The translations under genes and the position numbers were made by a program. A model generated the notes under the pieces. That model did not search any database and was not told where the DNA came from. It saw only the letters and a program-made list of their open reading frames with translations. Positions 6,678 through 10,394 of a DNA stretch of 64,000 nucleotides are shown piece after piece. This stretch comes from an uncultured Cytophagia bacterium (GTDB lineage: Bacteria > Zhuqueibacterota > Zhuqueibacteria > Residuimicrobiales > Residuimicrobiaceae): positions 22,796 through 86,795 of the forward strand of contig CAZISM010000001.1 in NCBI GenBank assembly GCA_964541895.1. Direction: 5' to 3'. The number at the start of each line of letters is the position of its first letter. The stretch's first letter is position 1.

Positions 6678-7793
6678 TTGGCTACGATCGAACAACAATG
6701 GCCCCGTCCGCATACACGGGACATGCGTGAAGAGCTCTATCAGACTCTTTTTGAGCATGCAGGCATTGCGGTGGCGGTGGTGCGTCAGGATGGTCTTTTG
6801 TTGACGGTCAATCGTCAGTTTGAACTGCTGAGCGGATTATCGCGTGCAGAGCTGGAAAATCGAAAGTATCTGTTCGATTTTTTCCGTCTGGATGACCGGC
6901 CTGCTCTTGAATCCTGTTTGCGCCGCAAGTGCGACCATACAGAGGGCGGCGGCTGCTATTCGGAAGGGCAGTGGCAGGCGAGCGAGACCGAGAGCCGTCA
7001 TGTACAGCTGAATATGAGCGCCATTCCACGTACCAACGAATCCATCGTGTCGATCACGGATGTGACGGAGCTTCGCCAGCTGCAATTTCAACTGGCACGG
7101 TCCAAGCAGCTGGCCGAGATCGGCGAGCTGTCAGCGGCCATTGCGCACGAAATCCGCAATCCGTTGGGCGCCATCAACACCTCGGTGGAGGTTCTGCGCA
7201 ACAGCCTGCAGCTCTCCGGCGAAGATCACGATCTGATGAACATTATCCAGGAAGAAACGCGCCGCCTGGACCGGATCGTCAAGGATTTTCTACACTTTGC
7301 CAGACTAAACCGGATGAGAATTGCCGCGGTCGATCTGAATCAACTCATTCGGGAAACGTTGTTTTTATACAAAAACACGCTGCAGGGAGGCATCCGGATC
7401 GAAATTGACCTTTATGCCGAGCTGCCGCTGCTCTACGGCGATGAAGATCACCTGCGCCAGGTGATGATCAATCTCCTCGTCAACAGCGTGGAGGCCATGC
7501 CTCATGACGGGTCGCTGACCATTCGTACTACTGTGCTAAAAGTAGAGTCGTTGAAAAGTTTCATCCAGATCCTGATTCAGGATACCGGATTGGGGATAGA
7601 ACAGAAATATCTGCATAAAATTTTCAAGCCTTTCTTTTCAACCAAGGAAAAGGGTGTTGGGATGGGACTCGCCATCTGCGAGCGAATTATTCATAATCAT
7701 GGCGGAACGATTGATGTCACCAGCGACGTCGGCAAAGGGACAACGTTTGTAATAACGTTGCCGGTCAATCACGCCATCCCCGTGGAGGAGTAG
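6678..7793 (+). CDS. Cytoplasmic PAS sensor histidine kinase (NtrB/PilS-like); TTG start at 6678, alternative ATG at 6723
   Basis: H-box ELSAAIAHEIRNPL, N-box LLVNSVEAM, G-boxes DTGLGI and GVGMGLAICERII. No TM segments. Cys-rich PAS segment. Confidence 0.85.
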   Translation: MATIEQQWPRPHTRDMREELYQTLFEHAGIAVAVVRQDGLLLTVNRQFELLSGLSRAELENRKYLFDFFRLDDRPALESCLRRKCDHTEGGGCYSEGQWQASETESRHVQLNMSAIPRTNESIVSITDVTELRQLQFQLARSKQLAEIGELSAAIAHEIRNPLGAINTSVEVLRNSLQLSGEDHDLMNIIQEETRRLDRIVKDFLHFARLNRMRIAAVDLNQLIRETLFLYKNTLQGGIRIEIDLYAELPLLYGDEDHLRQVMINLLVNSVEAMPHDGSLTIRTTVLKVESLKSFIQILIQDTGLGIEQKYLHKIFKPFFSTKEKGVGMGLAICERIIHNHGGTIDVTSDVGKGTTFVITLPVNHAIPVEE

Positions 7794-7800
7794 GAATCCT

Positions 7801-9129
7801 ATGGCTGAAATACTAGTGGTCGAGGATATGGCCAATCCGCGCAAAGCCATGTCGGTTTTGCTGCAACGCGAAGGCTATGCCGTGGACGAAGCGTCCGATG
7901 GTCAGCGGGCTTTGCAAAAGCTTGCGGATCGTTTTTATGATCTGATGATCACCGACTATAAAATGGAACCCATGGACGGCTTTGAGCTCTTGCAGCACAG
8001 CCGGCGCAGCTTTCCCTTGACCAAGGTCATTCTGCTGACGGGGTTCGGCAGCATCAAGCAGAGCGTGGTGGCCATGAAGCTGGGCGCCTACGATTATCTG
8101 ACCAAACCGTGCGAGCCGAAGAGCCTGCTGCAAGTGGTCAAAACGGCCCTGGTTCATCCGGCAACGGACGCCGCCCATGCGGCCCACCTGCGCGCGTTCA
8201 GAGAGATCATCGGTGATTCGGATGCCATGCAACAGGTGCTCTGGCTGGTGTCGCAGATTGCTGAAACGGAATGCACGGTTTTGATTCAGGGCGAGAGCGG
8301 TACCGGCAAAGAGATGATCGCCAAAGCGATTCATGAAAGAAGTCATCGACGACAAAAGCCGCTGGTGGCGGTCAACTGCGGCGCCTTGCCGGAAAATTTG
8401 CTGGAAAGCGAATTATTCGGCCATGTCCGCGGTTCGTTCACCGGTGCGATTCGGGATCGAAAAGGCCTGTTCCAGGAAGCGGAAGGCGGCACCCTGTTTC
8501 TGGACGAGATCGGTGATATCTCTCCGGCGATGCAGGTGAAACTGCTGCGCGTGCTTCAGGAGGGCGAAATACGCCGGGTCGGCGACAATCAACCCACCAA
8601 AGTCGATGTGCGCATCCTCGCCGCCACCAATAAAGATCTGGAACAGGAAGTGGTTTGCGGACGGTTCCGCGAAGATCTGTTCTACCGTCTGAATGTGATT
8701 CCGATTATGGTGCCGGCCCTGCGTAACCGCAAAGATGATATACCGGATCTGGTGAACCATTTCACGCTGCAGTATGCCGAGCGGATGAAAAAGGTGCAGT
8801 TGGATCTGAGCGTCGACGCGCTGCGTCGCATGCAGGAATATAACTGGCCCGGCAACGTGCGCGAGCTGGAAAATTTTATCGAGCGTTTAACGGCTCTCAG
8901 TCAGAAAGCAACCGTCGGCGAAGCGGATGTGATCGCCCATCTGTCCCGCAATACCAAACCGCTCAACGCCTACCCGTCGGCAGGTGAGGCCACTTTGTCC
9001 GAGCTGGAAAAACGGGCGATCATGGACGCCATGCACCGGTATCAGAATAATCATCGACTGGTTTCTGAAAAGCTTGGTATTTCGACAACCACACTGTGGA
9101 GAAAATTAAAAGAGTATCAGATTTCATAA
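7801..9129 (+). CDS. Sigma-54-dependent response regulator (NtrC/PilR family: REC + AAA+ sigma-54 activator + Fis-type HTH)
   Basis: REC Asp in [15 protein letters not shown]. Walker [15 protein letters not shown] (GAFTGA variant) sigma-54 contact loop. C-terminal HTH. GGAGGAG RBS. Confidence 0.9.
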
Positions 9130-9175
9130 CAGCGTTTCGATAAAACAGGGCCGGCCTGCCGCCGGCTGTGATGAC

Positions 9176-9207
9176 AAAGGGCGACTCACCAGGTCGCCCT
9201 TTTTTTG
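9176..9207 (+). terminator. Rho-independent terminator after the NtrC-like gene (gggcgac/gtcgccc stem plus T7)
   Basis: Read directly in sequence. Confidence 0.6.
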
Positions 9208-9351
9208 TGTGCCTGCCGCCTCCTCCTTCCATATACCCTTTTCATTTTGAAATGGGGCCATTTTAAAATGAAATGGTCCAGCCGAATTCCTCCATTTTCT
9301 TTAAATTGCCGTTATTCGTAAGTACTATTATAAACAATGATATGTGCGTAT

Positions 9352-9380
9352 TTGCTCAAAGTGGCATTTTTTGGCATAAT
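9352..9380 (+). promoter_or_regulatory. Sigma-70-like promoter: -35 TTGCTC, 17 bp spacer, -10 CATAAT
   Basis: Hexamers at 9352-9357 and 9375-9380 in an AT-rich intergenic region upstream of the CheY-like gene. Confidence 0.4.
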
Positions 9381-9477
9381 CATTGATAAGACATAGAGTG
9401 GTGATGCGAGGGCGATGGGATGGACAAACACTACTAACTATCTGGTTTCTCCCCCGGCTTTGTGGATTGGGAAGGTC

Positions 9478-9867
9478 ATGTTACGTATCCTTATAGTCGA
9501 TGATAATCGCAACTTTCGCACCTCTTTAACCATCGGTTTACGACGAGAAGGTTTTATGGTGGAATCCAGCGGCAACCCGGTCGAAGCGTATTCTTTGATT
9601 CAGGAGAGATTGTTCGACGCTCTGTTAACCGATTTGCGAATGCCTTACATTAGCGGGTTTGAGTTGGCGAAACTGGCCAGGCGTCAGCAGCCCAATATTG
9701 TAGTCGTTCTGCTTTCGGCGTATGATTTCAAGGATATGCTGGCAGAGCCGTCTGTGGAAAGGGATTTCATGAAATTGTCTAAACCGTTCGATATGCAGGA
9801 GCTGCTGGGCCTGCTATCTGCAAGAAAACAGGCAACAAAAAGGGAACATCATTTAATTCACCAGTAA
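9478..9867 (+). CDS. Single-domain CheY-like response regulator; likely start 9478, ORF track gives 9415
   Basis: MLRILIVDD..LTDLRMP..LSAY..KLSKPF receiver motifs. No output domain. GGAAGG RBS before 9478. Confidence 0.75.
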   Translation: MLRILIVDDNRNFRTSLTIGLRREGFMVESSGNPVEAYSLIQERLFDALLTDLRMPYISGFELAKLARRQQPNIVVVLLSAYDFKDMLAEPSVERDFMKLSKPFDMQELLGLLSARKQATKREHHLIHQ

Positions 9868-9899
9868 GACCCATTAAACCTAACTAAAAGGAGTGAACA

Positions 9900-10313
9900 A
9901 TGGGACAGCAACAACTCTTATTAATCGTTCTGAGCGTCATCATCGTCGGAATCGCGGTGGTAGTCGGTATCAACATGTTTGGCGCTTCGGCCGCTTCTGC
10001 CAACCTGGAAGCCGTGTCGAATGATCTGCTGACCTTGGCTTCGGCCGCCCAGCAGTACTATGTAAAACCATCCTCCATGGGTGGTGGTGGCAATTCCTTT
10101 GCCGGCTTGTCTGCTGATGCGGCTGGCGTTGCCAAGCTGACCCCAAAAGCTTCCAACGACAATGGCACGTACAGTGTCAAGACCGCCGGCGACGCTACCA
10201 GTGTGGTTCTTTCAGGAGTTGGCAAGCATGACGGCGATGGTGATGATACCAACTGCACGGTGGACGTTACAGTGTACAACGATCACATTGCCACCACGAT
10301 CGTGAGCCGTTAA
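9900..10313 (+). CDS. Candidate major pilin-like protein (N-terminal hydrophobic helix, non-canonical leader)
   Basis: 137 aa. AGGAG RBS. N-terminus MGQQQLLLIVLSVIIVGIAVVVG followed by a Gly/Ser-rich secreted domain. Position matches pilS-pilR-pilA synteny. Strong terminator follows. Confidence 0.55.
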   Translation: MGQQQLLLIVLSVIIVGIAVVVGINMFGASAASANLEAVSNDLLTLASAAQQYYVKPSSMGGGGNSFAGLSADAAGVAKLTPKASNDNGTYSVKTAGDATSVVLSGVGKHDGDGDDTNCTVDVTVYNDHIATTIVSR

Positions 10314-10358
10314 GCCCAATACCCGCATACACGACACAAGAACCAGACGGGCTAACAG

Positions 10359-10394
10359 AGACCCCGGCCTTTGTACAAGACCGGGGTCTGTTTT
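10359..10394 (+). terminator. Rho-independent terminator (9-bp perfect stem agaccccgg/ccggggtct plus gtttt)
   Basis: Read directly. Typical attenuator placement after a highly expressed pilin gene. Confidence 0.65.

Follow-up and report, generated by a model that had tools for sequence, protein, structure and literature searches.

The DNA considered here is a 64-kb stretch (hereafter, the window) of contig CAZISM010000001.1 from an uncultured Cytophagia bacterium, in which genes for a sensor histidine kinase, an NtrC-family sigma-54 activator, a stand-alone receiver and a 137-aa pilin-like protein follow one another upstream of genes for the pilus proteins PilC and PilB (Table 1). Going by its Der GTPase, the lineage is related to KSB1/Calditrichota. 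We mainly focus on how the pilin-like gene is transcribed: a sigma-54-type promoter, preceded by two conserved dyads, was found in front of the receiver gene, and receiver and pilin are most likely made as one transcript from it. The coordinates of the four genes from kinase to pilin in the initial annotation of this DNA were borne out by the open reading frame (ORF) listing and by domain scans, and the best reading of the layout is that of two predicted transcription units, kinase-activator (6678-9129) and receiver-pilin, each closed by a terminator.

Table 1. Genes and signals of the locus, numbered from the first nucleotide of the window.
Feature	Coordinates	Strand	Basis or location
Sensor histidine kinase gene	6678..7793	+	ORF listing, Pfam domains
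NtrC-family sigma-54 activator gene	7801..9129	+	ORF listing, Pfam domains
Intrinsic terminator after activator gene	9146..9209	+	RNA folding
Predicted enhancer (upstream activating sequence), dyad 1	9240..9252	no strand	Conservation and constant distance to promoter
Predicted enhancer, dyad 2	9261..9273	no strand	Second dyad present in 7/7 loci
Sigma-54-type promoter	9372..9387	+	Orthologue conservation, position, position weight matrix
Stand-alone receiver gene	9478..9867	+	Pfam Response_reg only
137-aa pilin-like gene	9900..10313	+	ORF listing, gene context
Intrinsic terminator after pilin-like gene	10359..10394	+	RNA folding
PilC gene	10511-11851		Downstream of pilin-like gene
PilB gene	11854-13638		Downstream of pilin-like gene

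In the initial annotation, which relied on a TGGCAC-N5-TTGC pattern, no clean sigma-54 promoter was recognized. Such an element does exist, and it precedes the receiver gene: TGGCATAATCATTGAT (9372-9387) reads TGGCAT-AATCA-TTGAT, with GG at 9373-9374 and G at 9385, has the exact GG-N10-G spacing and the invariant TTG, and stands 106 nt before the receiver ATG. It escaped the earlier pattern because its -12 element is TTGA and not TTGC. Transcription would begin near 9398. For comparison, 78 genome loci and 11 metagenome loci were fetched around homologues of the 137-aa protein, and the intergenic region was aligned for four loci that have the kinase-activator-receiver-pilin order and activators 70-90% identical (the window, L084, L003, and L009). 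Only two islands are invariant in this alignment, TGGCA(Y)-N5-TTGA and TTTCATTTTGAAATG (9240-9254); within the first, the spacer differs among orthologues (AATCA, AAAAT, GCGGT), while TGGCAY and TTGA are invariant. A second clade (L088, L079/L080, L089) carries TGGCAC-N5-TTGTA at the equivalent place. In 9/10 receiver-pilin loci, 89-106 nt separate the promoter from the receiver ATG that follows it, and in relatives that have no receiver gene the motif is found 62-104 nt upstream of the pilin ATG. Because it stands directly before the pilin in these receiver-less relatives, the sigma-54 promoter is best taken as the pilin promoter.

The same pattern recurs well beyond the close relatives. When 83 loci (1.63 Mb, both strands) were searched, 19 of the 43 strict matches fell inside pre-pilin windows, which make up 1.1% of the searched space; the corresponding binomial probability (P ~3e-26) overstates independence, the loci being related. 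Many further one-mismatch variants occupy the same pre-pilin position, and TGGCAY-N5-TTGH is enriched ~40-fold upstream of pilins across phyla. A position weight matrix (PWM) scan, as had been suggested in the initial annotation, was also carried out: with a matrix trained only on 19 receiver-less foreign sites, whose -12 elements read TTGC, TTGA, or TTGT, and applied to both strands of the window (128 kb), the site at 9372 ranks second among all positions. Taken together, the pilin family appears to be commonly placed under sigma-54 control. Another TGGCA, at 9362-9366, whose spacing is one base short, was considered as the -24 element and rejected, since it is absent in L084, whereas the second TGGCA is invariant. 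Two further sigma-54-type sites were observed elsewhere in the window, namely TGGCATTATTATTGC at 47085-47099 (+), 107 nt before an outer-membrane beta-barrel/TPR gene (47192-48496), and TGGCATTCGAATTGT, the site with the top PWM score in the window, at 55385-55399 (-), just before ORF 54206-55378 (-).

The palindrome noted at 9241-9272 in the initial annotation is real, and it is better described as two dyads. Dyad 1 (TTTCA-TTT-TGAAA, perfect, centre 9246) lies inside the invariant 15-nt island of the four-locus alignment and 126 bp upstream of the T of TGGCA, and dyad 2 (TTTTA-AAA-TGAAA, one mismatch, centre 9267) is 21 bp from dyad 1. Nowhere else in the window do two matches stand side by side, the other three being isolated, with one mismatch each. 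Seven loci, representing two activator clades (52% identical), have the perfect dyad 123-127 bp upstream of TGGCA, or ~12 helical turns, with diverged sequence between the two elements, and in 7/7 a second dyad is found 20-23 bp from the perfect one, on either side. The L009 locus carries ~0.9 kb of repeats resembling miniature inverted-repeat transposable elements (4400-5300) between the activator gene and the dyads, with the dyad-promoter unit intact at 125 bp; the insert consists of direct and inverted repeats with CTTCGTG.../...CACGAAG units. Furthermore, the activators of dyad-bearing loci have a recognition-helix sequence in common, though they are 52% identical overall, and pilin loci with other activator clades have different helix-turn-helix (HTH) sequences and carry neither this dyad nor the receiver. 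This is what one expects if the dyads are an enhancer that is coupled to the sigma-54 promoter and read by this activator clade.

The division into two transcription units is drawn by the terminators. The activator gene is followed by a pair of hairpins (-34.8 kcal/mol, z = -3.5), one at 9146-9170 and the other at 9176-9202; the latter has a stem of 11 bp and leads into a T-run. An intergenic region of ~270 nt extends from this terminator to the receiver gene. The terminator placed after the pilin by the initial annotation was recovered as a hairpin at 10359-10394 followed by UGUUUU (-20.7 kcal/mol; 0/200 shuffles fold as well). Between the receiver and pilin genes there is a spacer of 32 nt with an AAGGAG ribosome-binding site, and RNA folding found no hairpin or terminator-like structure in it. 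An Rfam scan of the whole window gave zero matches at the gathering score, leaving the 5′ regions without a riboswitch or other known RNA; the sole match at E<1, a miRNA match to the palindrome, was judged to be chance.

The kinase (371 aa) comprises PAS, HisKA, and HATPase_c domains in Pfam, with the PAS domain beginning at residue 19 and the H-box histidine at His157; its start codon may be either TTG at 6678 or ATG at 6723. It is predicted to be soluble and cytoplasmic because it has no hydrophobic segment, the hydropathy maximum (Kyte-Doolittle, 19-residue) of 1.13 indicating no transmembrane helix. Its best NCBIfam match is AtoS-like (269 bits, below cut-off). The activator gene follows after 7 nt and encodes a protein of 442 aa with Response_reg, Sigma54_activat, AAA_lid_14, and HTH_8 domains, in which D52, a Walker A motif at 164, GSFTGA at 211, and a Fis-type HTH were recognized. 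It aligns full-length to the NtrC-family structure 4l4u, and its closest solved structures are ZraR and Aquifex NtrC4/NtrC1. In NCBIfam, the top matches are NtrC (417 bits, equivalog cut-off 558.6), ZraR (408), AtoC (400), NifA, and GlrR, all below cut-off, and no PilR model is among the 25 matches listed. Sigma-54 activator genes of at least three clades sit directly upstream of members of the pilin family. The description of this gene pair as a PilS/PilR-like module, offered in the initial annotation, thus holds for the sigma-54 activator domains and residues and for the adjacency to the pilin; the kinase has no 6TM_PilS domain, and PilR orthology is not borne out by NCBIfam. Kinases of the 6TM_PilS type do occur downstream of pilB in the relatives L082, L088, and L089, and none is found in the window. 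Autoregulation of the kinase-activator operon was considered and set aside, as no dyad or sigma-54 site occurs upstream of 6678.

The receiver (129 aa) consists of a REC domain only (Pfam Response_reg), with a complete pocket formed by D8, D9, D52, S80, and K102. Its start is placed at 9478 rather than 9415 because its homologues are called at 129-130 aa. The initial annotation had described it as an extra receiver sitting between the activator and the pilin; the REC-only gene is there, at 9478-9867, but it is not an insert, since the promoter precedes it. With the promoter in front of the receiver and not of the pilin, the receiver would be the first gene of the pilin transcript, and six distinct loci preserve this position as first cistron. 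The receiver protein shows 34% identity (58 bits) with the activator's own receiver domain, including the helix after the acidic pair, compared with 29% (33 bits) for the REC domain protein with a cyclic-nucleotide-binding (cNMP) domain encoded in the same cluster; it co-occurs only with this activator and this dyad type, and no CheA-type kinase was found among the window ORFs scanned for domains. In view of this resemblance and co-occurrence, we favour a receiver that takes phosphate from the same kinase as the activator. What it then does may be to act as a phosphate sink that exerts negative feedback on pilin synthesis, which we would tentatively place foremost though well short of probable, or, a little less plausibly, to branch the signal to the pilus machine.

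Other receivers are found in the surroundings of the pilus genes. In L082, L088, and L089, pilB is followed by one to three stand-alone receivers and then by the 6TM_PilS-type histidine kinase, and the equivalent of that position in the window is occupied by the REC-cNMP protein, whose gene (13680-14645) lies between pilB and pilT. A CHASE2 adenylate/guanylate cyclase gene (48770-50881, -) is located 34 kb from it, and the two proteins together raise the possibility that cyclic nucleotides act on the pilus machine.

Our interpretation of the locus, which we regard as fairly probable, is a circuit in which the kinase acts through the activator on the enhancer and sigma-54 promoter of a receiver-pilin operon. 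A cytoplasmic signal sensed by the PAS domain would set autophosphorylation of the kinase on His157, and the phosphoryl group would then move to Asp52 of the activator. The activator is expected to oligomerise on the dyads (9240-9273), which are centred ~152 and ~131 bp upstream of the predicted start and 21 bp apart, and to open the sigma-54 holoenzyme complex by DNA looping and ATP hydrolysis, whereupon receiver and pilin would be transcribed together. The initial annotation had likewise proposed that a two-component sigma-54 module controls the pilin, as at pilS-pilR-pilA loci. The conserved promoter and enhancer agree with such control, and the likeness to those loci fails in the architecture of the kinase and in the position of the promoter.

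Several observations weigh against this circuit. The -12 element is TTGA rather than the canonical TTGC; within the window alone, neither the promoter pattern (3 matches versus 1.23 expected) nor the dyad pattern is significant, and the weight of both elements comes from sequence and position conserved across loci, not from window statistics. The compared loci are in turn phylogenetically related and not statistically independent. No rpoN gene was found among the ORFs scanned in the 64-kb window, the presence of sigma-54 in this genome being suggested by the activator. We infer binding of the activator to the dyads only from their co-occurrence, and an adjacent activator is missing from L079, L080, and L089, whose dyads and promoter are the same. 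The kinase-activator pair, presumed to be partners, could also have additional targets, given that synteny upstream of the kinase extends to a major facilitator superfamily (MFS) transporter gene in the window, the P0002 contig, L084, L003, and L009. Finally, either role proposed above for the receiver is a guess.

Some of these observations lead to different explanations. It is conceivable that housekeeping sigma-70 transcribes receiver and pilin independently of the activator, with TGGCA as a -35-like box. Hexamers suited to this are present: the initial annotation had noted a sigma-70-like TTGCTC...CATAAT pair at 9352-9380, and TTGGCA-N17-TAGAGT (9371-9399) matches the consensus at 9/12 positions, to which may be added the departure of the -12 element from TTGC and the receiver-pilin locus L002, where a good TTGACA-N17-TAAATT is found and no sigma-54 site. 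The pair at 9352-9380, however, overlaps the sigma-54 element and its hexamers are unconserved in the orthologous loci; in L084, L003, and L009 the putative -10 hexamers are not conserved, whereas TTGA placed exactly N5 after TGGCAY is invariant. Sigma-70-like sites are also of low specificity in this DNA (9 versus 4.2 expected in a 4.3-kb region), and TGGCAY-N5-TTGH is enriched before pilins across phyla and co-occurs with adjacent sigma-54 activator genes. We regard sigma-70 transcription as improbable. The pilin might instead have a promoter of its own inside or just after the receiver gene, leaving the sigma-54 promoter to serve mainly the receiver. A major pilin has to be made in much larger amounts than a signalling protein, an end that an extra promoter or mRNA processing would sensibly serve, and the weak GG-N10-GC match pointed out at 9808-9821 in the initial annotation does exist. 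As a promoter it fares poorly: it falls within the coding part of the receiver gene, it is not preserved in L003 and L009, whose codons at this place have no GG or GC, and the PWM does not score it highly; in addition, the spacer of 32 nt has a ribosome-binding site and no structure, and receiver-less relatives carry the same sigma-54 promoter directly before the pilin. A separate pilin promoter is thus very doubtful.

The remaining explanation accepts the dyads and the promoter and questions the partner: the adjacent kinase-activator pair would regulate other genes, such as the upstream MFS/nucleoside transporters or distant ones, and an activator encoded elsewhere would bind the dyads. It draws on the syntenic MFS gene, on the three loci with dyads and promoter and no activator nearby, and on the terminator that separates the activator gene from the dyads. 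Yet no sigma-54-like site or dyad was found upstream of the transporter genes or the kinase, and L088, which has no MFS genes, retains everything from kinase and activator to dyads, promoter, receiver, and pilin, with an activator that shares the recognition-helix sequence. The dyad type also tracks the HTH type of the activator, and on balance regulation by another activator is unlikely. Control of the receiver-pilin operon by the adjacent pair through sigma-54 is retained as the preferred reading.

The 137-aa protein itself is unusual as a pilin. Its N-terminus, MGQQQLLLIVLSVIIVG, reads MGQQQLLL and is preceded by an in-frame TGA two codons before the ATG, so that what the initial annotation called an odd leader is practically no leader at all. 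The MGQQQL start is found in 114/120 best protein matches and in 105/119 locus copies, and the in-frame stop lies at a median of 4 codons upstream of the start across the family. Gln or Leu stands where Glu5 is expected, with no Glu at position 5 in any register and no acidic residue among the first 36 positions; the features of a class III signal peptide, namely N_methyl, Glu at +5, and a short leader that is basic and has Gly as its last residue, are lacking. The protein has no pilin match in Pfam or NCBIfam, and ComP_DUS gives sub-threshold matches in 17/21 family members. An AlphaFold2 model (pLDDT 83) consists of a 53-residue N-terminal helix (3-55) and a four-stranded sheet. A Foldseek search against the PDB returned no significant neighbour of this model, and a sequence-profile link to solved pilins was discarded, the best match in a profile search of the PDB being Geobacter PilA-N at a sub-threshold E = 0.43. 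The family is strongly conserved: homologues number 4670 database proteins at E<=1e-3, with best matches 60-91% identical, and range over Calditrichota, KSB1, Zixibacteria, Ignavibacteriota, Kryptonia, Balneolales, and metagenome-assembled genomes labelled as Bacteroidota.

Gene context makes a strong case that this protein is a pilin. Most of the 78 genome loci preserve the order pilin-PilC-PilB, and PilT and a secretin also belong to the window cluster. The argument of the initial annotation that synteny supports a major subunit is only moderately strong, in that the full kinase-activator-receiver-pilin order occurs only in close relatives, other lineages having other activator clades or none nearby. 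The regulatory context supports an abundant, regulated product of the pilus locus, which does not by itself make the protein the major subunit. Downstream of PilB, the cluster continues with the REC-cNMP protein, PilT, two unknown proteins, the secretin, a large Big_1 protein, and three ORFs that have N-terminal hydrophobic helices. The Big_1 protein (1124 aa, 20236-23610), encoded directly after the secretin gene, combines a lipoprotein-like N-terminus with six Big_1 domains and five invasin-D3 domains, and may be a pilus-associated adhesin. In the three ORFs that follow (23643-24131, 24135-24722, and 24734-26002), the hydrophobic helix begins within 5-8 residues of Met1 (MNNAEVILTIG..., MNSLLYITVG..., and MGRYSSMMVIM..., respectively); counting from Met1, residue 5 of the first is Glu, and the last carries DUF4900. 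They look like minor pilins that also have no leader.

A more speculative extension concerns the pilus that the operon would build. The operon may supply the major subunit for a type IV-like pilus that uses leaderless pilins and no prepilin peptidase, with the co-transcribed receiver feeding back on the kinase, although we hold this to be doubtful as a whole. It is raised because the N-terminus is invariant with stops upstream, because the minor-pilin-like ORFs are near-leaderless, because no prepilin peptidase (pilD) gene was found among the cluster ORFs scanned in the window, and because of the literature. In the genome of Melioribacter roseus, pilB, pilC, pilT, and pilQ are present, and neither pilA nor pilD was found (PMC3534657). 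Beyond that remark, the paper library searched yielded no description of leaderless pilins or of pili in these phyla. On such a view, feedback of the receiver on the kinase would, in this clade, replace the membrane pilin-sensing done elsewhere by PilS.

Regulation and gene content around the pilin vary in more distant members of the family. In seven Balneolales loci (L048, L056, L057, L062, L069, L070, and L074), no sigma-54 site was seen upstream of the pilin; these loci have in common TGTAACA, ~15 nt, and (T)ACTCTT at 100-160 nt upstream of the pilin, an arrangement that resembles a promoter for an extracytoplasmic function (ECF)-type sigma factor, and the pilin there seems to have been rewired to another sigma factor. 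In six Ignavibacteriota loci (L011, L019, L020, L025, L045, and L051), the PilB after PilC is accompanied by a second PilB-like ATPase paralogue (31-43% identical), whose gene immediately precedes the sigma-54 promoter and pilin.

Transcription of the pilin, which the initial annotation had left open, can now be stated as a precise prediction, in which the enhancer at 9240-9273 and the promoter at 9372-9387 give rise, from a start at ~9398, to a bicistronic mRNA of receiver and pilin. More broadly, sigma-54 control of a pilus subunit has been known mainly in Proteobacteria and Myxococcus, and it appears to recur in a large, unannotated pilin family of the Fibrobacteres-Chlorobi-Bacteroidetes group, with a -12 element relaxed to TTGH. 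Annotation pipelines miss this pilin for want of a Pfam or NCBIfam match, and the promoter and the gene context together allow it to be recognized. That the receiver gene keeps its place at the head of the pilin transcript suggests that a feedback or output branch is built into the circuit, of a kind not described for PilS-PilR.

Among known systems, the closest in function is PilS-PilR/RpoN-pilA of Pseudomonas aeruginosa, Myxococcus xanthus, and Geobacter sulfurreducens. The link of sigma-54 to pili is a general one (PMC3162934), and in both M. xanthus and P. aeruginosa, transcription of pilA from a sigma-54 promoter requires the NtrC-like PilR (PMC6211767). The window locus resembles these in having kinase and NtrC-type activator genes beside the pilin, and a -24/-12 promoter with upstream activator sites. 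It differs in that the kinase is predicted to be soluble, with PAS only and without a six-helix membrane domain, in that a receiver gene stands between promoter and pilin, and in the TTGA of the -12 element. PilS is reported to sense pilin through its six-helix membrane domain. The window dyad, TTTCA-N3-TGAAA, is presumably unlike known PilR sites, and we know of no described PilSR counterpart of a receiver as first cistron of the pilin transcript. Since the kinase has no 6TM_PilS domain and the activator matches NtrC, ZraR, and AtoC below cut-offs, the circuit would be functionally of the PilS-PilR type, with membership in PilS-PilR not established.

In architecture, the pair looks more like NtrB-NtrC at the enteric glnAp2 promoter, with its soluble kinase and two phased dyads. 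Both systems have a soluble PAS kinase and a REC-AAA+-Fis-HTH activator, NtrC is the best NCBIfam match, and at glnAp2 the sigma-54 promoter is preceded, at a distance of more than 100 bp, by two dyad sites that share a helical face. The window activator nevertheless scores below the NtrC cut-off, its dyads have another sequence, and its likely target is a pilus subunit, not nitrogen assimilation. AtoS-AtoC and ZraS-ZraR are close by family score, AtoS being the best-scoring kinase family and ZraR and AtoC close activator families, but these scores are far below equivalog cut-offs, the window kinase has no periplasmic or membrane sensor domain, and the genomic context is another. The receiver can be compared with single-domain receivers such as Sinorhizobium CheY1 and Pseudomonas PilG/PilH, which act as phosphate sinks or pilus-motor modulators; like them, it is a stand-alone REC protein with a complete pocket, here in a pilus locus, but unlike them it has no CheA-type kinase nearby and is apparently co-transcribed with the pilin from the promoter of its presumed partner system. 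Set against these systems, sigma-54 control of the pilus would be the familiar part of the circuit, and the co-transcribed receiver its new element, in an uncultured lineage with a near-leaderless pilin.

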